DNA of 64,000 nucleotides from Botryllus schlosseri (taxonomy: Eukaryota), in contig CM119371.1 of assembly GCA_051294905.1 (NCBI GenBank), positions 5,768,001-5,832,000 on the forward strand, read 5' to 3'. How positions within the stretch are numbered: the first letter of the stretch is position 1; every line of letters starts with the position of its first letter. Below are positions 12,274 through 39,146 of this stretch, in pieces. The notes under the pieces were generated by a model. It made no database searches, was not told the origin of the DNA, and worked only from the letters and a program-made list of their open reading frames with translations. Made by a program: the position numbers and the translations under genes.

Positions 12274-14752
12274 CATAGGCGCCGACTTTTATTTTTTTAC
12301 GAGGTGGCGAAGTCTTGTGACGTCATAATTGTTCCAAATCGATGACGTCATCGTCGCTCTAAAACGCACTTTACTACATGCCGCTGGTTTACGTGCAGCG
12401 TTAAACTATACGTGTGGCGTTTTAATATAGGCCCTGTGATCATTCATATCAAACCATGCAGTCGAGTTATTAAATGGAATCTTAAAACGATACGAGTACG
12501 ATCGTACGAAAATATAACTGCGCTACTAGTCTGTCCGACGGAATGCACATAACAGAAATCAGAATTTACGTCACTGAGAATTTGGAGTTGTATCAATGTT
12601 ATTCACGCGCAATGTGCTGTGATGTGAGTAACTAAATACGCGACGCACTGGCCTGGCAAGTTCGCAATTAACACATGACAACTCTCGAACATGAGGTTTC
12701 AAGCAGACAATAATGATGATTACAAACGCGAAATCGCGCAGCCAATCAATAGTTGTCTCTTGCGATTTCTGGCTTCGCGTTGATTAGCTCGCATCGCGGC
12801 AATTGTTTGTCGATTAAAACAGCGATTTTGGCGGCATTGGTACATTTCCGATTTACGTTCGCGAAGCATTTTGGGAGTACATCGGTCAATTCGTAAATTC
12901 AATTTGCATGTCGATGGCCGCCAATACATACTAATTGAATTACGTGTTGACAACTGCACAAATTTCCTTCTACGGCCGCTGGTTGGATACCCCTGGGCTA
13001 GAAATAATTCCACTTCCGTGCACATGCCGCGATCTTATCAATAGAAATTCACCGGCTACCAAATGCCCAATAGTTTAATATTCGATATTGTTATTCTCGA
13101 GACGAGTACATCCAGCAATCAAGTTGATCGTAATATAGAATGTTCCGTGTTCAAACGAATCACATAAAATAAGAATTTGTGCCACCCAGAATCTCGTTAT
13201 GCATCAATATTTGACAATGGCATGGCATCGCCTACTGCACGTTAATAACGAAAGGAACACTGAAAAATGACTTCGTGCGACAATTTCGGAGTACGAATGT
13301 ATCAAGTATAAAACAAAAAATATGGATGGTTGCAAACGAGAAAGCGTGTATTCTAATCAGTATCGCTACGAATGGGTTTTGAGTTTGACATAGTATTGAG
13401 TAGCTTTCGTCGCGTCAATTGTTTTCTCATTATATCGGTGTTTAAGCTGTATTGCTGTATTTCCCGATTAACCTCACTGGCAAAGCCTTCTTAGAGAAAC
13501 GAATATGCGCAGAAATGAATTCCAATTTGGAGGCGCACACCAACACACCCTCCAATTTCGCGCTCTGATTACGAAGACTATCGCACGAAGCTAGCTATAG
13601 CTTAAGAGTGGTTTTGTAAACGAATGTGGGCGCACATCATTTAGATTTTAGAAAAGCAGATCGTCTATTTGGGCGAATGGTCGGGAGGGAAGATCTAGGA
13701 TGGTGTTCATGTTGACGATTTTACGCGTATGATAAGCTTGCCAAAGAGTCCGGAAGTGCTGTCAATTAGAGAGTCCCTGATCTCTGGTGAACAATTAAAT
13801 ACGCGCACGTATTACGCAGCCTCAATGACAGTTTCGGCAAATCAAAATGTCCGAACTTGACGGCACTGATTTCATGTGGTTCAGACCTGTGTAGTCTTTT
13901 AGAACTCAAGCCATGATGCACATCTTCTGATCGTTACGTTCAAGTATTAGCGGGAATCAATTACGCACGTTAATGTCTCTTTGCAGCGATTCGATGTTAT
14001 TCAGTTTTGCGATGTCGCTCTTTAATCAATGTAACATAAAACAATCACCAATTAGCGTAAACTCGACCGCATTGTCTCCAAACCAGCGAGAGATAGAAGC
14101 CAAAGCATGTTAGGTCCGAGACGCGATAGGTAAGCCAGCAATGGTATCTTTCGCACCAGGCCTATCGCAGATGCTCATTGCTCATCATGTATATACCAGC
14201 GATGATATCGTATACGCCAGGCCGAAGCCGCCAATACAGATGCGATTGCGCATGCAGGCAAGCGATGGTATAGTGTGAACTGGGCCTATTGCAGATGCAG
14301 GCTTGTTCGAGACGCGATAAATCGGGCTATTAGCGATGATTGCCACGCGCACGGGAATGAATGACCTAATTTCGCAACCATCTCAGCGGGAGATCATCAC
14401 AGAATCTTCTCGCTAATTGACAACATGCTTCTCGTAAATCGACCCGCGGAACAATGATAATACAATTATTGAATTGCAGCTGAATATTAGAGTTAGAATG
14501 GTCGTTTCAAAAGGACGTGGTTTCGCGTTTCAGAAGGTTTCGGTCCCCGAAAGCCCCCTGGCTTCGCGCCTGGCACGCACGCGTATCGAACTCGACGACG
14601 TCTCTAACGAGGTCGCGTCGATTCGCCTGATTATTAATTATTGGTCACAAATGACTTGGACGTTTGGGCATTTTTACGAGGTGGCCGCCACCTCGTAAAT
14701 ATGGTCACGAGGTGGCTGCGCCACCTCGTAACCTCGTAAGTCGGCGCCTATG
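12274..14752. mobile_element. Composite non-autonomous hAT element (TIR CATAGGCGCCGACT)
   Basis: 8-bp TSD CCTGCCGG; contains a Charlie-like end (about 12980) and an inverted CAGGCGCG-family piece (about 13700-14572). Confidence 0.85.
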
Positions 14753-23060: not shown

Positions 23061-26000
23061 CTGTATCATGGAAAAATACATTTAAGCAGTCGCACAAGTG
23101 TTCATAGTAGTCAGTGTTGCTACTCAAGTAGAAGTAAGCTAGTTTATTTCTAATCTATCACCATTAGAAGATGCTCAAAGTAGTCAGGGTCATAAGAACG
23201 GCAGGGAATAATAATTCAAGGACCCCAATCTGAATCAAGTGTTAAGTATAATCATTCGAGTCGCGACTCGCGAGATATGATTTTTTCGCACTGGAATTAT
23301 GCATACCTTGCCAGTAACGAGAACTATAGTTTTCATTGTGTTTACCAATGTAAACTTGATTGGTCGTATCTACGGCTGGGCAAAATCGAGTACCTGGGTC
23401 ATTCGATTCTGAATCATGTAATATGCTTCGAGTTGAGTAATCGAGGATCACTCATCATGACATCACAACAGAATGTACTTCGTCAACGATCAAATATGTA
23501 CCATTCATGCCACCGCATAGAATATAATGCCTGTTATCAATCTCATAAAGATACTTTGGTATTTTTTCGACCATACCGATTTTATTCCACTCGGTGCCAT
23601 GCTGCGGGATAATCATGACTTCCGAAATGTGCTACGTCCAGTAACCTTCGTAGCTTTGAACAATATGTTTCGTATGCCACGATACCGCCAATCAATGTCT
23701 CCAGGCTTCAACAGTGAAAATTAGTATCGAAACTATAGTTTTCGTTGATAAATTAAACCTTCAGTGGCGAGAGGTGTATAATTTCAATACTCGAAAAAAT
23801 CGTCTTTTACTACTTGAATCATTGTGCCCGGCCCTAGTCGTATCAGATCACAGCCTACGAAACATGCAGTACATAGCTATGAACGTTAGTGGAAAGGACA
23901 TGTGAAGTCGTGATCAACTTTTGCACCTTCAAGAATCTCTTGAAATATCCCATATACCAGGGTCGGGATTGCAAGCGACCCGTATACAGTTTCTGGTCTT
24001 GCATGATAATGTGGCCCGCGCCTAACTACATTCGCAATCACATATCTTCAACCATGAACATGAGCAAGGTGGTTCCAATCAAACTGAAATCCACGCGCAA
24101 TTTTACCATTTTAATTGAGGGTTTCTGCGTACAACATGTATTCGGAGCTCAAAGAACTTTCATTGACCACAGATCAACAGCTTCTGAAGAACATTATGTA
24201 TGATGATAAATTCATTGAATACTGCTTTTGTCTCAACGCTTCAAACTCAATGTTTAGATTGTCGGTAAGTGGATAAATATGCAATTAATGTATCGATTGA
24301 CTGGCCGGTCAAGTACTTAGTTTCCCGCATGCGGCCTTGCCGACTGGAGAAGTTTCCCGCCCCTGCCATATCCCGAACACAATCTCATATTACCTCGAAG
24401 AAGTTGATCTGCATGGTCCCGTTGCTGAGATGCAGCACGATGGCGCTTCTCGTCCGAAACCACGTTCTGAGGAAGGGCAGACGAGCGTACTGGTCACCTT
24501 CCTTTGGCGCCATGGACGCCCCGGCCTGAAACGCAAATCCATGGTCAAGAAAGTGTGCCGGTATTCACAGTTCAATCCTACACTTCTTAGTTGAAACGTA
24601 GCTACTCATTTCAAGTGTTGCGATGTAATCGGTACCTTCGAGTCGAACGTCATTTCGAGTGACTCTGGACATTAGATTTTTTAGCAATACAGTTTGTTTT
24701 TAAAATTAGAACGATTACTAGCTTTTTCCAAATTATACAAGAATTATAATTATAGCTACACAGTTTTTTTCAAATTAAATTAAATTTATAGCAACATGGT
24801 TTTTTCCTAATTATATTACAATTAGATTGATAGATGTACTGTTGATTTCTGAATTAGATTAGAATTAGAATTGTAGCAACACTGTTTTTCTGACAACGTT
24901 GATTATAATTACCGAACCCACGAAAACTTGAACGAGAGTGGCAAATATTTGTATAGCAAGCTTGGTTGGCTTCACACTATACCGTTACCCTGTAGCATTT
25001 TCAGGAAAAACATAAATTAGATTAGAATTAGAGCAAATCAACATTTCACAAATTAGACTAGAATTAGATTTCCAGCATTCCGCTCTATTCAGTCCAATTT
25101 AACAACTAGAATTATCCAGTTGTATAAGTCTGCTAGAAAGGCAGTATTGAAGAAAATCATGCTTGAGCGTGTAGACAAAATTTGTCACCCTATCTTGTCA
25201 AAATTGCCAAAAGACACTAACTTGAGAGTTTTTATGCGCCTGATTTACGAATGGTTGTAAATACACTTTTATTCCAACTCAACCCACCTTGAGCAAATGC
25301 TCGCACATGTAGTTGCGAAAATACTTGAGCAGGGTTACTTTCTTGGTTAGCGTGTTCGGATATTGTTGAAGCGTGTAATAAGATTCTGCCATGTCTCTGT
25401 CAATGTACTCCACCTGCTCGTCGTTGGCGTACAGAAGTATTCGCGTGCTATCGTTGAACAAAACCCCATTGCTGTTGTCACATAGTTGGTAGCCTGAAAT
25501 TTGAAGCGAATTTATCAAAATTTGTACAATATTTTGGACCACAACAAGTTCTATATCGTTGCTGGCAAGCTTATCATACGCTTAAAATCGTCAATACGAA
25601 GAGATCATATGATCGTCATTTACACATGTGCTTGACCAGAATTGAATTAATGCTATATTGGTAAATTGAAAAAAATCAAAATCCCAATAATTTTTCGACT
25701 GGCTACTGACTAGCACCATCCTAGATCTCCTCACCCAGCCAGGCGCCGACATAGCTAGCTAGCTAGCACGTGATAGTCTTGGTAATCGGAGCGCGAAGTT
25801 GAAGGGTGTGTTGGTGTGTGCTTGCAAATTGGAATTCATTTCTGCTCAGATTCGTTTCTCTAACAAGGCTTCGCCAGTGACATTTATTGGAAGATGCAGC
25901 AATACAGCTTAAACACCGATATAATGAGAAAACAATTGTCGCGACGAAAGCTACTCAATACGCTGCCAGTCTAAACCCATTCGTGGTGATACTGATTAGA

Positions 26001-29000
26001 ATACACGCTTTCTCATTTGCAATCATCCATATTTCTTGTTATCTACTCGATATCTTCGTACCCGGTACTAAGAAATTGTCGTGCAAGGTCATTTTTCAGT
26101 GTTCCTTTCATTATTAACGTGCAGTAAGCCATGCCATTGTCAAATATTGATGCATCTGAAGATTCTGGGTGGCACAAATTCTGATTATATTCGATTCGTT
26201 TGAACAGGGAACCTTCTACATTCCGACAAACTTGATTGCTGGATGTGCTCTTATCGAGATCAACAATATCAAATATTAAACTATCAGGAATTTGATAGAT
26301 AGTCGATTTCTATTGATAAGATCGCGGCATGTGCCCGGTAGTGGAATTAATTCTAGCCCAGGGGTGGCCAACCTGCCGCCGTAGAAGGAAATTTGTGCGG
26401 TCGTCAACACGAAATTCAATTTGTATGTATTGGCGGCCGTCGACATGCAAATTGAATTTACGAATTGACCGATGTACTCCCGAAATGCTTCGCAAACGTA
26501 AATCGTGAAATGCACCAAATCGCTGATTTAGCGTAGTTACGCTTCCGAATGATCGTTCCGTACCGTCTTAAGATTCCATTTAATGACTTGACTGCATGGT
26601 TTGATATTCAATAGTGCAATATTCAATAGTGCCGATATTAAAACGTCACGCGAATGGTAGCGGCATGTAGTAAAGTACGTTTTAGTGCGACGATGACATC
26701 ATCAATACGGAACAATTATGACGTCACAAGACTCCGCCACCTCGCAAAAAAATAAAAGTCGGCGCATATGGTGAAGTGGACATATGAACTTCCATTTTCA
26801 AGGTAAATTGAAAACAAAACTGGTTTAGGTCCAAAATGTATGGTCAAAGCCAAAATTTCCAAAAATGGACATAAGATATAAGGACCATTGTTGCACAGCT
26901 AGAAAACTTTTTCCAATTTACATTACAATTGGAAAGACCTTCAAAGTTTCAGTTTTGTAAATTAAATTAGAATTAGTACTGCCGGCAGTGAATTTGCAAC
27001 AACTTGGCAATTGAATAAAATTTCGAGTTAGATTAAAATTGGATTAGAGCAGCGATTCTTAACCCTTTGCGACCGGCGGTCTAGTATACTAGACCGCGAC
27101 TGTTTAAGGCAGAGGAGTCGATATTTAATCCGAGATAGCTAAACCTGTGTTGGTCATAAACGATTGCAATCGGTTTGTATGTATAGCTCTTATAAATACG
27201 AATGCATCAGACCATGTATAACCTAATGTTGCAATGTATATCCTGCTTTAAATGCAGATTGAACACGCAAAAATGTTTCCCGCAAAATCGAATTTGTAAT
27301 GATGTTCGCGTGAGTGACCGCCTGAAATATAAACCATTGTATCTTCCGTTCTAGACGCCATATAACCGATTACAGTTATCTTCTATGACTTGTTGTTGGT
27401 CATACTATTCTATGAAAGTCCTTATATCGAAGATTAGCACGTAGAAGATGTTTCAAATTGACGTGAAAGAAGCATACCTTATTACGTAAAAATCATGGCT
27501 GCGTAAGATGACCTGACTCGTTGCGGTTTCAAACAGATGTACAATTGCTTCAGGCAATAGCAAATTATACATATGATTAGAATTAAATAGTATATTCATA
27601 TTGAAATGAACCCGAATATTTTCGGCTGACACTCGTCAGGGGTAATCGTCAGCAACTAGTAGAGAATTGGAAAGAACATTGTATATCAACAATCGTATCA
27701 CAAAATATGACGTCACCAGCATGAAATTTCGAATGAGAGAGCGTTCAATGTACTATTTTTAGGTGATACGATTGACGTCATATTTTGTGATACGATTGTT
27801 GATATACAATGTTCTTTCCAATTCTCTACTAGTTGCTGACGATTACCCCTGACGAGTGTCAGCCGAAAATATTCGGGTTCATTTCAATATGAATATACTA
27901 TTTAATTGTATATTGAAGTTCTGTACCTCCAAGAAGCTCTTCACATATGATTAGCCATTATCCTGGCATATCCATCAATATCCCTATCATGGAGCTTAGT
28001 ATTGTATATGAAAGCCGACACCAGCCCTAACAACGCACAAATAAGCGTGCAAGTTACGCTATTGTGGTACCCGAGCCTGTGATAACAACATCATATAGAG
28101 GCAGTTATATATCTGTTTTAGATGGCACACGAAGTTACTGTTGGCTTCTATGACTACTGTTGATCATACATAGAACATTAGCCGTGTAGAATACAGTTCA
28201 AATTGATGTGAAATGAAACAATGTATCACGTGAAATGACTTCCCGAGCGTCACATATGGGCACTGGGCAGTTTCGAATAAGGCAATATGTGTATACTTAC
28301 GGATCCCTTGCAGTTGCAAGTTACATATAACAAGCAATTGGGGTTGATAACACTTCAATAGTATGGAGATGTATACTAACGGCAAAATTGCCAAGGCAGT
28401 TACTATGTTATGTAGAACTGGACGCGCGTTGCCTTCAGCGAGAATACGAGATTACGTAATCGATCACTCATCGGCGGCGGCCGCGTGATTGTGCTTATCA
28501 TCTCTACCTTTCTAAGATCGTAGCGCTGGGCTATGAAGCGCTATAGTAGCATGTAATGTCTCGTTGAAACGTGGAGATTCATGCGGAATGCAATCAGGTG
28601 GTCATATACTAAGAGAGGGCCTAGGTATGACGTCAGGAGAAATAGAAGAACAAAATTGTATTTTATTTTCAAGAAATCGAGAACATTTTCTCGCATAACA
28701 CTATTCCCTCTGGCGTCTGAGCCGTAAGAGTATCTCAGACCGCTAGGCGGCTACTTCAGGTTTACGGCAATATATTGGGCGTCGATTTAAGCCATATGGA
28801 TGACATTTTATCGTTTTCTATGTGGATGCAGTACAATTTTGGTCAGTAGGCCGGCCGGTTACAAAGGGTTAACCTTGTAGCCAAAACTCACTTCGTACCA
28901 CAAGTCATCAATATATGACAAAAATTCAAACTCATTTTCTGAAATTGGGTGTAAGAACCCAAAATCATGATAGAAATATTAGAGTTGCCACTTCAGGCCA

Positions 29001-32000
29001 TATTTTAGAGACCAATTATTTTCATTTTTCAGCCATTTTATTATATACAGAAAAGACGCATCCGGCATCGCTACTGTGCATACAAGCAGGGATATTTAGG
29101 ATTCCAAGATTTCCATACCTAGGCCGTACTTATCCGTATAATCCACCCATTTGCTAATCCAGAGCACCGGGACAGCTGCTGGGTCTTCCGCCTCATCTGT
29201 AAAACAAAAATATTTGTAAGAAATTTCACATGTAAGCAGATTATCTGAATGCTATAGTTTCCTATTCAATTTTTCAAATATGCCAAAACCTTGTCTTCTC
29301 ACGTTAGATCAGCAAACACCGTCAAATCTTAATTACATTATTTCATACCCATAAGTAAGTGCCATAAAGTACAATCCCGTGCTCACAATAAATCGTCATT
29401 TTGATTGGAGCAAACATTGGACTGTATTTTTTACATGCCTTAAAATTGGAATTTATTCCGATCGTAATGACTCGAGTCGCGATTTTTTGGTGACTCGACT
29501 TATTCGAGTCACTTTTGGTATTGACTCGGCTTGTACTGAAGTCAGGCGCGTAGCCAGAGGGGGGGTTTTGGGGGTCGAGACCCACTCCTTTAGAAACGCG
29601 AAACCCCCTCCTTTAACGCGAAACCTCGCCCTATTGAAATGACCGCTCTGACGCTAATACTCGGTTGCAATTCAATAAGTCGTATTATCAGTATTGCGCG
29701 CGGCCAATTAACGAAAGGCGTGTTGCTAATTAGCACTGCACAATGTAAGGCGACACGATCTCCCGCTGAGATGATTGCGAAATCAGGTAATTCATTGTCG
29801 CGCATTGGGCAATCATTACTAGAGTGATTTACCGCGTCTCCAACAAGCCTAATTCCGCTGGCTTGAATAATCACATCTGCAATAGGCGCTGTGCGCACGA
29901 TATCGTCACTGGCCTTCACAATCACATCTGCATTGGCTCGGAGTGCACGATATCTTCGCTGGCCTACACAATCGCATCTGCAATAGACCTAGTACTAAAG
30001 ATATCGCTACCGCTTCTTGGGCATACCATGCTTTGGCTCCTATTTCTCGATGGCTTGGATAAAATGCTATTAAGTATATGCTGATTAGCGATTGTGATTA
30101 AAGAGTGACATCTCGTAACCGAATGACATCGAATGTCCGCAATCATGTTCGACGCGTGCGCACATGCGTAATTGATTTCCACTAGTCTTCAGTTATAGTC
30201 CTGTAGGCTTGAGTTATAACAGAGGTAAGGTTTGAACCACCTGAAATCGGCGTCATTATAGCACGGATAAAGACTCGAACAATTTTACTTGCGCGAATCT
30301 CGATGCTACGTAAGACGCATTGATGAGCGGGCGTATTTAATTGTTGGACGAGCACGAATTTAATTGTTCCACGCGTTGATAAGCGCACGCGTATTCAAAT
30401 GTTCGACGCGTGCGTATTTCATTGTTCACGACAGATCAGGGAGTCGCTAATTAACGGCACTTCCGGACTCGTCGACAAGCTTATCATACGCCTATAATCG
30501 CCAACACGGGGATGTTGTATAATCGTTATTTAAGCATCGCATGTACTTGACCCTAATGAATCGATGCTACGTTACTAAATTCGAAAAAAATCGAGCCCCC
30601 CTCTATTATTTAAAACCCCTCCCTTATTTTTTGGCTGGCTTCGTGCCTGACTGAAGTCAATACCAAAATAGGGCCAGAAACTGTCAGGACTGAGGAACAC
30701 TACGATATTATGAATGCGAGCCATTTCATATCACTCGAGCAGAATTGAAAAAGTGGGTTGGAACGGATTCAACTCAAAACAATCAGCGGTAAAACTATGA
30801 AAACCAACCCATATTTATAGCCGACTTCAAAGTTGGATTGGTATCGATCAATTTCTTGAGTTGTGCTTCCAATTCTGCCATGTGGAAGTCTGGCGATTCG
30901 TTACTGCATATGCCGGTAGCCTGTGGTTTGTCACCCACTGTTTTCTGTGACTCCGTATTAGCGCCACCTGGAAAATGAATAAAGAATAACAAGGTTTAAC
31001 AGCTCGACAATATTGCGGTGTTTGTATTGAAAGGTTGAACAAATACATTTTATTCGCAGCGTAGGCCTATAATAGATTGAAGTTTGAAATATTGGGTTCC
31101 CTTTTACTTTATAACATTACAAAAAATTGTACACTATACTCGGAATGAAACAAATTAAGCATTCGAACCGGCTACTCAGAGATGTGGTGCAAAATATTGC
31201 TGATATAAGATCATCGATAGTGCTGGACAAAATGGAGTACCTGGGTCGTGCTAAAAAGGCATTACTACAACGGAGATTCTCAGTTACCGGGGACATGAAG
31301 CTACACTGCATCACTGGTACTATCTAGTTTGGCAAGGCCCAACGTCACTTGAATACAAAAAAAATTAAAAATCTTGATCAAAACATTTATTTAAAATTCA
31401 GACTCTCCTATCAATTGAGATGTTCCTACTGTAGATTACTAACCTACGTAGAGATACGCAACTCGCGATGGTCACGCTTGGGCAAGCAGTGTCTCTTATT
31501 GCTGATTAATCTATGAAGTAGCATAATTGGTGGTGCTATAGTTGGCGATATGAGCGCTGAAATTTAATATAATTGGTCTTAATCGAAAGCTTGTGGCAAA
31601 CTGACTAACTGATTTCGCAAATACAAACAAAATCTTTTCAGGGCAATGAAATCAACCCGAAATAACCCTCAAATTCTGAAAAATGCCATTGTTCCAACAG
31701 TGGCACCGTCACAACACAACGAACATAACAATGGCCAATTTCGTCAAGCGATCGTGTAGAACAATGTCGATTTTCATACTTTGAGGGCTGTTTTAAGGTG
31801 GTTCCATCTTCTTGACAAGATTTAATTGGTATTGTCGGAATCAGTGTGACGCTAGCTTTCTATCAAGACCAGTTTTATTAAATTGCAGCCCTCGGTTTGC
31901 CAGCGATAGCACTAGCAATTATGATGCTTTTAGATTGCTCAGCAATATGAGACTGCGTGCTCGAGCGTAACAATGGGTTTTGCGAGAGTTGCGTATCTAT

Positions 32001-35000
32001 CTCGGTAGGTTAGTAATCCATACTACCACATACTAGTGGTAAACTTACCACAGTTTGGAAACCACTGATTTATACCGTCATGATGAGTGGTAATCGAATA
32101 CTCAAAGTCTACATGATCTAGAATACAATCACGCAGGCACTGGATTTTGCCCGGGCAGACCCTGTGACGCAACGTTTGCGTCAAGTACAAATATCTCACT
32201 GTTCAGACTCTGCAGCGGACGTCTCTGTTGTAGTTGGCTTTCCGAGAACCTGGGCGCCATGGTCAAGCAGGTTGTGGGCAGTTTCTGTGGGATGTAGCCG
32301 TTGAAGAACTCGCTGGCCAGCACTTCCTTTACAGAGGGTCGTTGGGACGGGTCGCTCGCCAACATTCTGGTGATAAAACCACAGATATTAACTCACATTT
32401 TAAAAAGATTGTTTGGGAATCAGGATTTTTGGATAAAAAACTATATTACAAATTAAGATTTGAATTAAATATATCAAAATATTACCGGGCGTGGATGAGA
32501 AGAGGTTCATGTATCAGGATAAGCCTATTTTCACACTTGCAAAACTAGAAATTGTCAACTATTCCAAATTACATTAGAATCATAGATAAACAATATTTCA
32601 GATTAGATTAGAATTATATTACTGTCATCTTGTTCTGATTAACAACTAGAATTATTTAGGTTTCCAAGTCAGCCTATTTCGATTTGAAATTATTATACAA
32701 ATGAAGATAATGATTTGAAAAATCAAACCACTCAGCAGGGTTGTAATGACTCGAGTCATGACTCTACTCGAGTCACGATTTTATCGTGACTAGAACCAAA
32801 TCATATGACTCAGGACTCAAAACGGCCAAGTCTATTGGTACTGGTACTTGAAAAACTGCTAAAAGTTAGGAAAATTAGTATATTATAAATGCGAACCATT
32901 CAATATCGCCAAACAGAGTTAGAAAAAGTGAATTTAACAAGACTTTAACTGGAAACTTGGAAGTCAACACAATGACTCGGACTCGAGTCATAATACCATG
33001 ACTTGAACTCGACCCGCTGCTCGCTGACTTGGACTTGACTCAGTGGTGAATTGAAAATGACTCGACTTGACTCGAGTCAAAACTAGAAAAGTCAGATTGA
33101 CTTGCGACTCCGAGCCTTGTGACTTGGTTACAGCCTATGGATTTTGGGGTCCTCATTTTTTGGATTTTCAAATCTAATATGAATCAATATTGTGATTTGA
33201 AATAATTGAATCGATACCGAATATGTGTTTTACACTAGATTTGGACTATATAATTCTAGTTGCTGAAGTGGACTAATTGGAGCGAATTGCCGGCAATCTT
33301 TTCAATTCTAATCTAATTGCTGCTTGTCCTGAATATGATACAGGTGAATTGTATCGTGTGTCAAGCCAAGCTTGCTGTGCAGATATTTGCTATCCTCGCT
33401 TATGGCGATCAAACTCTGGTTTGATATTAACTGAAACTCATTCAATTTCCAAGTTTTTCGCAAATTCAGTAATTCTTATTCAAATCTAGTTGAGAAAAAC
33501 CTATGTAGTTATAATTCAATTTTAATTTTGAAACACTGAAAGTTGTCTCGTTGACGATGTCTGTCTGATGTGACCAGAATCACCTCACTTTTTGATAAGC
33601 ACACACGCAGCAGGCGACACATAAGCCGGGACTCTGTAGTCGTTCTTCTTGATTCTCGAGTAGGTTTCCTTCAACGTCTGAGTCTCAAACGGAGGCTTGC
33701 CCACTAACAAAGTATACCTGAAATATGAAATAACATGCACGTTCAACTTGACATGCAAAAGTCTCACTGGTCAGCAAACGTTAACTTTGAACTATTTACA
33801 CTTGTACGAATCACCTGTCTGATTGGTTGATGTTTACCTTAAGGGGGGAGACTACCCCTCGAATTGAAAAATTAGTAAAATGGTTCTTACTTGAAAACTA
33901 ATAGAGCTATCTATCTGAAAATTGGGCACAACGTGTTTTAGTTGACATCCTAAATTTGACAAAAATTTCGCGTTATATGGTAAACGATTTTTTGATTTTC
34001 ATCGAATTTTGTGATTTTTCGGGCTAATTTCTAGGAAAAATTTTCACATCAACATTTTTCAATAAATTCGTTCCTTAATGCTCTTTAGGGATTAAAATAG
34101 ATCTAATGCACCAGACAGGACTTTTTTTCTAGCCCTACAAGGAGTAACATATGACAAAACAATCATTTTTTTGAAAAAAATTGAAAAAATAGCATTTTTC
34201 GACTTTTACAGACAATCGGGGATAGACCCCTTATCAATACCACGAAAAAAAAAGTCCTGTCTGGTTCAGCATCCCAAGATATGTCTATCTTTTTTCTGCC
34301 TCAAAAATGATCACCAGTACTCATAGTTACGCAAAATCAAAATTTCGAGAAAAAGCCATTTTAATTTCGCAACACATAAACGTAACAGTTATACTTTGAA
34401 AACTTCATTTTAGCATAGTTTATATTCTCAAACACTCCCAGGAGCATATGTTTTATTTCAGCATTTTCAAGTTTTATGGTTTTGATATCGTTATTCATTG
34501 TTGCACTGATCTGAGCTAGTTGATTTCCATTCTTTGAAATCCATTTTCCCTCATGATTTCACACGATTTGCAGTAGTTGCTCCGGTAGTCGACAATAAAA
34601 CGTGAGTGGCTAGTTTCAAAATCCAATGTTTCTTGCTTGTATATGTTCTTTCATGCCATGCAGCATGGCATGGATTGAGATTGTGATATCTGTAAAGCAC
34701 TAATCCGGAATCTAACAGTCTTCAAACCTATCATTTCATCGCCAAAATACAGTAACCAAACCCTGTCTCTAAGCACACAGGAACCACAAGCTACGAAGTG
34801 CCAAGCTCTGAATATGGTTTGTTTACATGTGTTGTAACGCATCATTGATCAAACCATAGATCTCGCAAATAACACTAGATCTTCACGATCAAGCCTTGGG
34901 ACCAGACACTCGGGTTATTGATTGTTGTTGCGCCGTGAGTTGATAATTAGGGGGGGGGGTGACTGGATAGGGTCATAAAATGTTAAATTTTACATACTTA

Positions 35001-38000
35001 GGCTTATCCAATCCTTACAAAACTTGGGTAGATGAAAGATAACATCTAATGGTACAAATATCAACAAAAATATAAATTTTGAATTTTTTTCATTTCCAGG
35101 GGTAGTCTCCCCCCTTAACCAGTTTTTTTCGGTAGTGTTAGTTGTAGATTTTCAAGTGTGGAGAGAGTTCGGAAAAGCGAGTAGTTCTAGTTCCGCCTAT
35201 TTAAAAGTCAGTAGTTCTATTTCTAGTTATGGCTCTTGAAAAGTGACTAGATGTAGCTGCTAGTATAGAAAAGTGAGTAGTTCTAGTCATGGCTATTGAA
35301 AATTAAATAGTTCTAGATGTGGCTTCTAAAATGCGAGTAATTCTAGTTAAAAAAAGTGACTAGTTCTAGTTCTCGTTGCTATTTTAGAAAAGTGAGTACC
35401 GGTGGTTGTAGTAGATATTTCACAATGCAGTAAGCGCAGATTATAGTTTTCTGCCCTTCTACTACCACGCTGGGACGTCACGAAAATGCCCCAGCAGATA
35501 TACTCAGGTATGACTCTGCTTTATATGTCTGGCGGGTGTTCACCTGTGTATGTGGTTCTGGCACCCCCATATCAAGTCTGCGGTGTGTTTGATTGCCGCA
35601 TGGCAGCAAATGCAGGATTTCAGGCAATTCGATAGCTGGCGTCACGGAGCGTAGAATTTAAGAAACCGAATTGATTGAGAGATATCACCGCATTAATTCG
35701 AGAAATACAATTTAAAATAGAATCAGGGCACTAGAACCACCCCAGCGTCTGACATATAGGCATTGTCCAAACAATCGGAGTGCCGCAACAGGTCATTGTG
35801 TCACGACAATCTGATAGTTCTGAAATATGCAGGTTTTTGATGTCAAGGATAAACTTGAACACGCCCCGGAAACGCTCCAGAGATGATACACGAGTTCTAG
35901 AACAACGTGAACACACCCCAGACACCCTCCAGATATGATGCAGAGTGATGTCCGGTGATATCCGCAGGGCCCAAGAAAATACACGATGTTTTCTTTACCC
36001 GTACTGGTCGATAGCATTTCTTACAAAATGTCATGGCTTGATTTGATATTACTGGCGATTACGATCTAGCTACAACTCCGCCTCATACTTACAAAACGCA
36101 ACCCAGCGACCAGGTGTCCACTTCGAAACTGTGGCCCTTCTTTCCGAGAACTTCCGGGGCGATATAGTTGGGTGTGCCGCACAGAGTGTTCTTTCTTTCC
36201 CCGTCAAAATCGACTTTGGTGGCCAGGCCGAAATCTCCAATCTTCACCTCCATGTCGTTGTTAAGGAATAGATTACCAAGCTGTCAATACAAAAAATTCA
36301 TATTCAGGCTCAAACAAACACAAGCATCTACAAACCACCAATCTAATTGCTCGACGTAACTAACTACTGCTATTTTGAGTACTTCTAGTACCGGGGTCAC
36401 CATCACGGGTCATATTTTGCGGCTTTGAAACGATGAAATTAATTTCAGTTTCAAAATATTCTGGTATTTGTTCGAAACTCAGCTATTCTCTTGTGCCCAA
36501 CATCACTACTAGCTGAATATTGTATTATTGCGGCTCAAAAGTGTCCCGATACTCATTTTGAGTTGGCAACTTCTGTTCTAGGATCATTTCTAGTTGCACA
36601 TTTTGAAAGGTAAGCAGTCCTAGTTCCAGCAGTCAGTATTGGAAAGTGAGTGATTGCGAGTCTTGAAAATGAGTAGTTCTGGTTGTAGTTGCGAATTATA
36701 GAAAATTAAGTAGGCTGCCGATAGTTCCAGTTGCGAGTTTAAAAATTAATCAGTGACATTCACATGAAGCCAATCGGTTTAACCACTACTTGCTATTAAA
36801 AACAGGCCCACTCTTTGCATCATGTAAACTTGGATTATAATACATCTAGGCCAATCATCTGCGCACACCCATAAATTCACGGCGCAGGCCCTCGGAAAAC
36901 AGTGCGTAACGGTTAAAAAAACGTAATCACTCCAGATTTTATTTGCGCAACTTGGATTTTCTGTGCGCAGAGACCGTTTCAGCTCTGCGCATTTGCGCAC
37001 ATTCGCAGCTTAGAGTGAACATTGCTCGCAGGCAAGTTCTAATCTAAATCCTAATGTTACCTTGATATCCCTGTGAATGATCTTACAATCGTGAAGATAA
37101 ACGACTCCAAGCAGAATCTGCTGCATGTAGTAACGAGTCTCCGGCTCTGTGATGGCGCGCCGTCTTTTGTAAAGTTCCATCAGCGACTGGCAACAAAAAC
37201 CAAAGCTAATTGGATTGATAAAATAGGAAAAACAACAATATAGGCTAATATTTGTTGGGCACATTTAAATCAGTCATATATATTATAACCAAACTTCGAA
37301 TATGCCAAGGTAACAAGCTCGATAACTACATGGAAAATACTTCAACGCATGGCCTCTTAAAACAGGATATATTTATGATGTCTTGCTACTCAAAAGGTCT
37401 AAGCTGTGCGCAATAAGACTGTTAAAAAATGATTTTTGGCGACTATTACTGGCTCGATGATAAAATTGCCAGGTTGGCTAAAATAATGATAAACATCAAA
37501 TTTGGCGCAATTCCAACTCATAGAAGCAAGGATTATGAAGTGAAAATTCTGAATTAAAAAATGGTATATATATGATTAGGGTAGAAAATGCAATCTTATC
37601 AATTAGCCTATAGAATCAACCACCCTTAATTCACGATACTATGCTAGCAGATTCATAATCGGTTCAAGAATCAGATCAAAGGTAATTAGGAACAAAGACT
37701 TGGTACTTGAAATAGGCTTTCAAGTAGGCTGCCTGGAACAGTGTCCTGTGACCAAGTATGCTATTATAATTCTATGTTTATGCAAGGATATAAGGGTCGT
37801 GGTTGTGGTTGAAAGCTTAGACAGGATATCTCTGGCGCAATATAACTGTCTAACATGGTGTAGCCTAAATTTCAACACTCGGATTTAAATTTCAATGTAA
37901 GAAGTGTTCAATTTACAATTCTCATTCATAAATCTATTCTTAGTACTTAGTAGCAAGGGAATATAATTTCAGTAGGCCTTCTCCAAAATTACCTCGATTC

Positions 38001-39146
38001 AGATACACAAGCTCAAACCATTTTGCTAAGACCTTACCAGCACCGAAACAGTCAAGAGATGCAGTACTGTTTTTACCCTTCTTTTGCACAACTCGAGAAC
38101 GATGTAGACAAAATCCTTGTCTTCGAAGAAACCGTGAAATCCAACGACGTGTTTGTGATTCAAACTGCGATGGAGACTGATCTCTTGAGCCATTTTGTCT
38201 TTCTGATGCTGTTTCACGAGCAGTGCCTGAAATTCAAAGAGAATTGACACTAGTGACACAAATTTTGCAATAGCTTAAACTACAATGTTGACGTATGCAA
38301 TTGTATTAGCCTAATACTTGGGCTATTGGGCTACAAACAACTAGGACCGTTAGGGTGCTATACTTTTTTTACATAATATGGCAGTAGGCCTATCATGGTT
38401 GTATTTTTATTGACATTTCATTTCTAAAACATATGGTCCACAGATTTGTATGATTTTGTTTAATAAATATATATGCTATTTTGTAGCACCTTGGAGGTAC
38501 AAAACTTCAATATACAATTGAATAGTATATTGATATTGAAATGAACCCGGATATTTTCGGCTGACACTCATCGGGGGTAACCGTCAGCAACTAGTAGAGA
38601 ATTGGAAAGAACATCGTATATCAACAATCGTATCATGCTGGCGACGTCATATTTTGTGATACGATTGTTGATATACGATATTCTTTCCAATTCTCTACTA
38701 TAGTTGCTGACGATTACCCCTGACGAGTGTCAGCCGAAAATATTCGGGTTCATTTCAATATCAATATACTATTCAATTGTATTTTGTAGCAATGTACGCA
38801 TAATTTGCGTTCACATCAATTTTTGTAGCCTGACTTGTTATAGCACATTTTTCTAGTTAAGTAATACTAACTAGGAACTAGAACTACTAAAAAACAGTGT
38901 AGTTAGTTGACCGTCAACCAACTATAGACCGGTAGCTAGTTCAAGTCTGATCTATCAACAAACGTAGCTTACCTTTGGTACAATTTTACCGGCTAAAACT
39001 TGCTTCGTTCCCACTTCGGTGATCTCAAAGCATTTTGCGAATCCGCCTTTGCCAAGGAATCGTCCTCTCGTGTATCGTTTCCCAGTCGAGTCATCGCACA
39101 GGACTTCAGGGATCTCTTTCGTAGCGACGTCAACTTTTTTAGACAT
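22866..39146 (-). CDS. PLK1: Polo-like kinase 1, spliced gene, 11 coding exons, 1704 nt / 567 aa
   Basis: Exons 38973-39146, 38077-38226, 37061-37186, 36093-36280, 33589-33717, 32200-32366, 30809-30967, 29119-29196, 25288-25493, 24394-24525 and 22866-23060 are all GT-AG with matching phases. Motifs: [29 protein letters not shown]-box-like RRPLQSLN, polo-box KWVDY, and DHTK (phosphopeptide pincer His/Lys). Confidence 0.96.
24394..24525 (-). CDS. PLK1: PLK1 coding exon 10 ([11 protein letters not shown]...[23 protein letters not shown])
   Basis: Polo box 2, 132 nt. Confidence 0.95.
25288..25493 (-). CDS. PLK1: PLK1 coding exon 9 ([14 protein letters not shown]...YMCEHLLK)
   Basis: Polo box 1, 206 nt. 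Confidence 0.95.
25715..26770. mobile_element. Inverted, deleted copy of the 12274-14752 hAT element in PLK1 intron 8
   Basis: Reverse-complement homology to about 12274-13700; TIR AGTCGGCGCATATG. Confidence 0.8.
27610..27643 (-). ncRNA. Minimal hammerhead ribozyme motif (inverted arm; PLK1 pre-mRNA sense)
   Basis: Exact reverse complement of 27845-27878. Confidence 0.72.
27845..27878 (+). ncRNA. Minimal type I hammerhead ribozyme motif
   Basis: ACCC-CTGACGA-G(TGTCAGC)C-GAAA-ATAT-TC-GGGT: full core, palindromic stem III loop, 4-bp stem I. Confidence 0.75.
29119..29196 (-). CDS. PLK1: PLK1 coding exon 8 ([26 protein letters not shown])
   Basis: Start of polo box 1, translated by hand; TTTTACAG acceptor, GTATGG donor. 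Confidence 0.95.
29543..30649. mobile_element. Non-autonomous hAT element (TIR CAGGCGCGTAGCCAG)
   Basis: 8-bp TSD ACTGAAGT; internal repeats of about 45-50 bp. Confidence 0.88.
30809..30967 (-). CDS. PLK1: PLK1 coding exon 7 (inter-domain linker, [16 protein letters not shown])
   Basis: TTTTCCAG acceptor, GTTGGT donor, phase 1/1. Confidence 0.88.
31434..32019. mobile_element. MITE with TIR GATTACTAACCTAC...GATACGCAACTC
   Basis: Inverted termini; partial copy at about 40955-41430. Confidence 0.65.
32200..32366 (-). CDS. PLK1: PLK1 coding exon 6 ([10 protein letters not shown]...RRPLQSLN)
   Basis: End of kinase domain plus D-box; GTGAGA donor gives phase 1, matching exon 7. Confidence 0.9.
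33589..33717 (-). CDS. PLK1: PLK1 coding exon 5 ([12 protein letters not shown]...VLIK)
   Basis: 129 nt, phase 2/2. Confidence 0.94.
33843..35114. mobile_element. Kolobok-like non-autonomous DNA transposon
   Basis: TTAA TSD; TIR GGGGGGAGACTACCCCT (purine start, unlike piggyBac CCC). Confidence 0.75.
36093..36280 (-). CDS. PLK1: PLK1 coding exon 4 (LGNLFLN...DFG...[12 protein letters not shown]...WSLGCV)
   Basis: Translated by hand (not in the ORF track); 188 nt, GACAG acceptor, GTAAGT donor. Confidence 0.95.
37061..37186 (-). CDS. PLK1: PLK1 coding exon 3 (SLMELYKRR...IIHRDIK)
   Basis: 126 nt, catalytic-loop HRD. Confidence 0.95.
38077..38226 (-). CDS. PLK1: PLK1 coding exon 2 ([16 protein letters not shown]...LELCKRR)
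   Basis: 150 nt, TTTCAG acceptor, GTAAAA donor. Confidence 0.95.
38489..38779 (-). mobile_element. Second Penelope-like fold-back pLTR insertion (PLK1 intron between coding exons 1 and 2)
   Basis: Same arms and tail as the 27.6-kb copy; 12-bp TSD TATTTTGTAGCA. Confidence 0.8.
38716..38749 (+). ncRNA. Minimal hammerhead ribozyme motif
   Basis: Intact ACCC-CTGACGA...GAAA-ATAT-TC-GGGT; the opposite arm (38545-38578) has two core mutations. Confidence 0.72.
38973..39146 (-). CDS. PLK1: PLK1 coding exon 1 (MSKKVD...GKGGFAKC...GKIVPK)
   Basis: ATG at 39146, donor GTAAGC; acceptor TTTTCCCAG 26 nt upstream of the ATG (exon starts 39172). Confidence 0.93.

Follow-up and report, generated by a model that had tools for sequence, protein, structure and literature searches.

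A head-to-head pair of truncated copies with hammerhead motifs, probably of Penelope type, in an intron of a Botryllus schlosseri Polo-like kinase gene

The window analysed here is a 64-kb stretch (64,000 nucleotides) of the Botryllus schlosseri assembly GCA_051294905.1, contig CM119371.1. It contains a Polo-like kinase gene on the minus strand (25282-39191), with both kinase and polo-box exons (Table 1). Four of the six exons were supported by Pfam matches, and the other two carry motifs that we take to be those of this gene. A hairpin-shaped insertion of 362 bp, copy A, is located in the intron between the exons at 29.1 and 25.3-25.6 kb, the position at which the original prediction had placed it. 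A related insertion, copy B, is also intronic and lies after the first kinase exon found. With A and B both in introns, the Polo-kinase pre-mRNA carries long hairpins. Two further repeats occur in the window. At 62041-62750, a GC-rich inverted repeat consists of telomere-like, TTAGGG-related units with tandem periods of 23 and 70. The segments 12274-13582 and 25772-26770 form a long inverted pair, approximately 88-92% alike and 12-14 kb apart, and are probably two copies of another repeat family.

The anatomy predicted for copy A was confirmed throughout. The two arms are complementary at 135/135 positions and separated by a 57-nt interval (the spacer), a 35-nt tail is present only 3' of the right arm, and the whole is enclosed by a TSD of 12 bp, identical on both sides. 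The inverted copy, approximately 182 nt long, covers the left arm and extends through most of the spacer. The claim that copy A is recent also holds, with 0/135 differences between the arms (95% upper bound 2.2%). The downstream flank (27955-28200) is itself a diverged repeat, with many contigs carrying other letters and a short direct match 745 bp away; copy A was thus inserted into an older repeat. No partial-tandem or direct pLTRs were found within the 64-kb window, nor was a host-site paralogue spanning the insertion point; the match of one contig of sequencing run X5 begins exactly at 27943. There is no tandem array at any of the four family copies in the window, and a non-LTR retrozyme at these loci was rejected on the absence of head-to-tail units from all four.

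Table 1 Features of the Polo-like kinase gene and of the repeat family in the window.
Feature	Position	Strand	Remark
Kinase exons, Polo-like kinase gene	38958-39191, 37013-37264, 36092-36283, 33588-33770	-	
Polo-box exons, Polo-like kinase gene	29099-29251, 25282-25581	-	
Left TSD, copy A	27569-27580	.	12 bp, same letters as 27943-27954
Inverted 5'-truncated copy of linear parent	27581-27762	-	~182 nt, without tail; 27762 end approximate
Left arm (inverted pLTR-like part)	27581-27715	-	135/135 complementary to right arm
Hammerhead core in inverted copy	27610-27643	-	Descriptor match at 27639 minus; strand of host Polo-kinase transcript
Insertion-specific junction	27763-27772	+	Begins 12-nt repeat of 27787-27798 (repeat D12)
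Right arm (direct pLTR-like copy, 5'-truncated)	27773-27907	+	
Candidate pseudoknot strand upstream of stem I	27835-27840	+	Complementary to loop II 27858-27863
Minimal type I hammerhead	27845-27878	+	Predicted cut after C17 = C27874
One-sided 35-nt tail	27908-27942	+	
Right TSD, copy A	27943-27954	.	
Copy B, second head-to-head insertion	38489-38779	-	291 bp, junction unlike that of A, older
Copy C, tail-bearing fragment	43844-43919	-	Whole hammerhead deleted
Copy D, diverged fragment (~72%)	58467-58607	-	Degenerate hammerhead: broken stem I, internal duplication

BLASTN and nhmmer recovered three family members beyond copy A, in agreement with the four originally counted. Copy B has a perfect 12-bp TSD of its own (38477-38488 and 38780-38791), as had also been claimed. 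Both complete copies (2/2) therefore consist of a 5'-truncated copy next to an inverted truncated copy, and their junctions differ. In copy B, 6-7 upstream bases are present on the inverted side and the direct copy begins at the equivalent of 27788, while the inverted arms of A and B end no more than 1 nt from the same point. The tail of copy B comprises 26 nt plus one base, so that tail lengths are 35 nt in A and 26-27 nt in B and C. The arms of copy B have diverged from each other by 6 changes. At 3 positions both A arms agree and both B arms differ from A, from which it follows that each pair was copied from one template. Copies C and D adjoin, at 43920 and 58619 respectively, sequences resembling the beginning of hAT-type MITEs. 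A search over 3 kb did not detect a corresponding second end, the scan for C having begun two bases off.

An index of 24 sequencing runs from 11 studies, 20 of which contained at least half of the query words, was used to place copy A in the context of its family, and four of the 24 (X5, X9, X22 and X24) were compared with 27716-28200. Matching sequences amounted to 112,393 contigs in X5, 8,155 contigs in X9, 4,833 reads in X24 and 15,837 reads in X22. In all four runs, arm depth is hundreds to thousands of times flank depth. Although depth does not measure copy number and is subject to edge effects, the family can reasonably be taken to number thousands of copies; the window alone holds four. 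The variants, joints and loose ends described below are those among the 40 of 181, 15 of 466 and 24 of 1,311 listed, respectively.

The best-supported joint in 4/4 runs connects 27716 to 27773 on opposite strands, and the loose ends found before 27773, again in 4/4 runs, are the reverse complement of the spacer start. Together these demonstrate that the parent is linear. Approximately 47 of the 57 spacer bases hence belong to the inverted copy, as the antisense continuation of the parent. The protein-database match P0001 continues past 27773 in the same way as the loose ends. A second, short match of P0001 (residues 120-129, E 0.06) corresponds to the 27697-27726 region, approximately 360 nt after the first copy, and could either hint at a tandem unit or be due to chance. 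Depth over the junction of copy A (27770) is only 0.01-1.1% of hammerhead depth and 0.2-16% of the depth of the upstream part, showing that the fold-back of copy A does not represent the family as a whole. P0003 appears to contain a third head-to-head junction, shorter than the other two, as judged from protein letters only (E 0.001).

At the other end the family has two 3' boundaries. One lies at approximately 27907, with loose ends at 27897/27902, and the second at 27941-27943, where loose ends with mixed flanks occur in 4/4 runs; beyond both, consensus agreement in the flanks is mostly 0.4-0.5. The similarity of all four protein-database matches (4/4) also ends at the tail end. Depth decays in the 5' direction, reaching 6-16% in the upstream part, whereas tail depth is 0.34-0.55 of that at the pLTR end, as would be the case with the tail present on roughly half of the arms. 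Among the 15 of 466 joints listed, a few single-contig joints, of a kind not stated, link the tail end to approximately 27790-98, and no go-back joint is present, although a monomer longer than the compared stretch would escape such a comparison.

These observations bear on how the head-to-head arrangement arose. The original prediction regarded copy A as a fold-back mini-element, and movement of such an element as one unit is not supported, as most of the spacer derives from the linear parent and each insertion has a junction of its own. A defined non-autonomous element of arm-spacer-arm-tail structure, copied as one unit, would account for A and B both having the order arm, junction, arm and tail within a 12-bp TSD, with the first 6-7 spacer bases in common; B could then have arisen from A by a deletion, 3 nt being shared at the break. 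The common spacer bases are, however, the parent's own upstream sequence, as evident from the loose ends at 27773 in all four runs (4/4), tail lengths vary among A, B and C, and the depth over the junction of A is far too small a fraction of either the hammerhead or the upstream depth. We consider this explanation improbable. Alternatively, a single copy could have inserted first and acquired its inverted arm later, via DNA repair, inverted duplication or gene conversion in the hairpin. Conversion could yield both the identity of the arms and the private variants they share, and a 12-nt duplication at the junction is typical of template slippage. Against such a two-step history, the TSD encloses both arms exactly in 2/2 complete copies, the inverted arm of each ends at one and the same family boundary, and the arms of B, 6 changes apart, have not been re-homogenised. 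A later origin of the second arm is thus very unlikely.

Copy A contains a hammerhead motif in each arm, as predicted, the two being identical and mirrored. In the right-arm motif, a 4-bp stem I (27845-48 with 27875-78) is followed by the core from 27849, a helix II consisting of the single pair G27856-C27864 with a 7-nt loop, and a palindromic stem III (27868-27873). A strict type I descriptor (core, G-C pair closing helix II, palindromic stem III and at least 4 bp of stem I) matched the window three times, in both A arms and in one B arm. It matched neither in the window after dinucleotide shuffling (40 shuffles, both strands) nor in 20,000 shuffles of the 170-nt unit (0/20,000). The hammerhead core is beyond chance. 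The earlier description of copy A as carrying two ribozymes is correct in that there are two motifs, yet misleading: they lie on opposite strands, so that one RNA carries only one of them and there is no double hammerhead in cis. An Rfam search of the window (E<=1) returned no hammerhead family and two weak, unrelated matches, both originating from the telomere-like repeat at 62041-62750.

An intact core is kept in 3/4 arms of A and B, and in 2/4 window copies. The exception among the arms is the tail-side motif of copy B (within 38489-38635), on the host-transcript strand, which has two core changes, at U4 and U16.1; the motif on the other strand is intact. The chance of the damage falling on the host-transcript strand is approximately 0.06, in this one case. 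Across the family, 27835-27878 is without variants among the 40 of 181 listed, as is 27787-27834. One-base insertions occur at 27856 (helix II) and at 27899, in approximately 6% of X22 reads.

The original prediction had also warned that the element is easily mistaken for a MITE, and justly so. A MITE is a uniform unit whose terminal inverted repeats directly abut the TSD on either side. If the insertion were a MITE or fold-back DNA transposon, with subterminal palindromes that happen to look like a hammerhead, this would explain the long perfect inverted repeat, the TSD, the lack of an ORF and the high copy number. Such an origin would be compatible with the absence of an Rfam match and with the best fold of the motif, a pair of small hairpins that are not unusually stable (z -0.58). 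This model is at odds with the tail that stands between arm and TSD in copy A, the right TSD being 35 nt (A) and 27 nt (B) from the arm, with the variable junctions and ends, with the one-sided 5' decay and two 3' boundaries, and with a descriptor that was never matched in shuffles. It was rejected as highly improbable.

Copy A is non-autonomous: no ORF in the window exceeds 177 aa, and copy A lacks a single ORF with both a telomerase-like RT and a GIY-YIG endonuclease. Neither domain was detected in the 41 ORFs scanned (0/41, out of 88 ORFs of at least 85 aa), and weak searches with two protein probes produced only singleton ORF calls over other copies of the repeat, without RT/GIY-YIG domains (4/4 matches). 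As no RT/GIY-YIG parent was found, we can only infer membership of the Penelope family; the locus would work like a Penelope insertion, without assignment to a clade. For the parent, the odds are about even between an autonomous 3-kb element and a short non-autonomous master, and a retrozyme-like master may be present elsewhere in the genome. Between helix II and the tail end (27853-27942, 30 codons), one reading frame is free of stops. Over approximately 69 codons the only stop in this frame is the TGA of the core, and two of the three commonest variants within it are silent. It was nevertheless rejected as the start of an ORF: 6,630/20,000 shuffles have such a frame, which is not significant, and the probes gave spurious ORF calls only.

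We propose, with a probability of roughly 80%, that the locus is one integration product of Penelope-type machinery, consisting of two 5'-truncated cDNAs joined head to head. The Penelope-type anatomy invoked by the original prediction is present, with inverted pLTR, one-sided tail in the 30-40-nt range, TSD and a type I core with palindromic stem III. An RT + GIY-YIG protein would have bound RNA of the linear parent, and the target would have been nicked on both strands, 12 nt apart. From each nick cDNA could have been primed, at two internal starts approximately 35 nt apart that correspond to the tail end and the pLTR end. Both cDNAs would have stopped early, at approximately 180 nt, and a short template slip, leaving the 12-nt repeat at 27763, would have connected them head to head. 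Such joining would give perfect arms, a one-sided tail, a private junction and a 12-bp TSD. A single self-primed, fold-back cDNA might alternatively lead to a similar product. Either way, copy A would have been dead on arrival, lacking an ORF and with its hammerhead locked in a duplex. The scheme combines published marks of Penelope insertions with the behaviour of the anole protein. According to the available parts of that study, the purified protein cuts and extends both target strands, and two internal RT start sites bound the tail (PMC11167929).

Similar insertions have been described. In the available sections of PMC8557442 and PMC8969392, insertions of EN+ Penelope-like elements are strongly 5'-truncated, have an inverted truncated copy next to them and carry a tail of 30-40 bp. 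Penelope-like examples in the accessible text of PMC3846280 have an inverted pLTR, a 31-bp tail and TSDs of 8-10 bp, and self-priming was proposed there. As far as these sources describe them, Penelope/Poseidon, Neptune and Nematis insertions resemble the locus in combining a truncated and an inverted truncated copy with a one-sided 30-40-nt tail, a TSD around the whole unit, a hammerhead upstream of the tail and an AT-rich target. In contrast to the EN+ insertions as presented there, an RT/GIY-YIG ORF was neither found nor linked to the family and both halves are shorter than 200 nt, and the TSD of copy A is 12 bp as opposed to 8-10 bp in the rotifer examples within the text at hand (PMC3846280). 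Animal non-LTR retrozymes, in the portions of PMC7229834 and bioRxiv 10.64898/2026.07.22.740005 available, consist of head-to-tail tandem units with canonical hammerheads and give rise to circular RNAs. The present family is similar to those described in being short, non-coding and pLTR-derived, with a type I hammerhead, and retrozymes are thought to use Penelope enzymes. It differs from them as portrayed in that copy A is arranged head to head, with no tandem unit and no dominant go-back joint among the joints listed. The head-to-head truncated Penelope-type pattern has thus already been described, and only the shape of the hammerhead motif looks unusual. Head-to-head Penelope-type ends resemble MITEs, a lesson for annotation in view of a family very abundant in the genome, and the many private junctions and two sharp 3' boundaries offer a good data set on the origin of Penelope inversions and tails.

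The minimal hammerheads of metazoan Penelope elements occur in pairs on opposite strands, at distances of 100-700 bp, and have a helix I of 4-5 bp, a palindromic 15.2-16.2 and a helix II of 6-8 bp; they are believed to function as dimers and cut slowly (Cervera and De la Pena 2014, PMC4209133, parts available). The core, G10.1-C11.1, 4-bp helix I and palindromic stem III of this class are present in 3/4 A and B arms, and type I topology and opposite-strand pairing are likewise shared with the hammerheads in the accessible part of that work. Unlike those depicted there, the motif has a one-pair helix II with a 7-nt loop, possibly complemented by a 6-bp pseudoknot, and no unpaired base between A9 and G10.1. 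The long helix II and the unpaired base after A9 are absent from the motif, one G-C pair standing in their place, and no longer form of helix II is found among the six indels listed at a frequency of at least 5%. From the sequence, it is possible that helix II was long in an ancestor and disappeared through a deletion between the two occurrences of the core heptamer.

The candidate pseudoknot would join a strand upstream of stem I to loop II by 6 Watson-Crick pairs (27835-27840 with 27858-27863), the duplex having a calculated energy of -8.1 kcal/mol. Equal pairing is reached by 472 of 100,000 random 20-mers from the window and in 96 of 20,000 shuffles, for a pairing that was picked post hoc. 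The upstream strand may be a duplication, since it repeats the core heptamer, and the bases of loop II have the catalytic core as an alternative partner. In copy D, a pseudoknot-like pairing of 5 bp was discounted as probably fortuitous on a rough estimate. There is precedent outside Penelope elements for a design of this kind: a naturally occurring hammerhead in which stem II is a single pair, combined with a pseudoknot of six pairs, cleaves rapidly, according to the available text of Perreault et al. (2011, PMC3088659). The construct described there is of type II and metagenomic, whereas the motif reported here is of type I, with a dimer-type stem III, at the end of an animal retroelement, and its pseudoknot is a candidate. 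The accessible literature, including PMC10085705, yielded no Penelope hammerhead whose helix II is a single pair with a pseudoknot, although Lunse et al. (PMC5785218) or the figures and supplements of PMC4209133 may describe one. If real, the pseudoknot would be a new structural variant of Penelope hammerheads and a simple reason for ribozyme silence in host transcripts.

Computed folds do not favour the active state. The active nested fold of the monomer was calculated at +5.2 kcal/mol, compared with -10.5 for two hairpins that bury the core, and the dimer stem III contributes only -0.2 as compared with -11.2 kcal/mol for a misfolded dimer. RNA reading through copy A folds into a hairpin of -244.8 kcal/mol. 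These models make cleavage of copy A RNA unlikely, and its hammerhead is predicted to be silent because it would be locked in the 135-bp duplex when the host intron is transcribed. For parent RNA, the motif would most likely cut weakly after C27874, as a dimer or with the assistance of protein, and we give this about even odds; the anole ribozyme required its protein. Taken jointly, a hyper-abundant short non-autonomous Penelope derivative and a hybrid pseudoknotted hammerhead might constitute an on/off switch, a reading that we regard as doubtful. It would combine a Penelope-like dimer-type stem III with a one-pair helix II clamped by the 6-bp pseudoknot. Through the competing pairing of loop II with the core, the ribozyme would be off by default, doing no harm in host introns, and on when the element protein or a second copy refolds the RNA.

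Motif pattern scans of viral contigs and of prokaryote genomes gave no matches (0 in each), and the scan of metagenome contigs gave two loci, L001 and L002. L001 was rejected as a hammerhead, being an apparent coding stretch without stem I pairing.

RNA of the family is present in the sequencing runs. No pile-up of RNA ends was seen at the predicted cut site C27874 or anywhere on the compared stretch, the libraries being fragmented; the active anole element likewise has no RNA reads ending at its cut site, in the accessible parts of PMC11167929. Places with A>G plus T>C changes are commoner in the RNA runs (38/115 and 43/121) than in the DNA runs (9/45 and 11/48). A-to-I editing was rejected as the cause, as the excess is not significant (p 0.06-0.5) and the RNA and DNA runs are without a matched individual. 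Reads running into unlike sequence make up 98% in X24 and 65% in X22, which fits host read-through. With the second mate taken as sense, the sense strand of the element dominates in X22, by approximately 22:1 in the upstream part and 2.7:1 at the hammerhead, a bias of the kind that single loci can drive; X24 appears unstranded.
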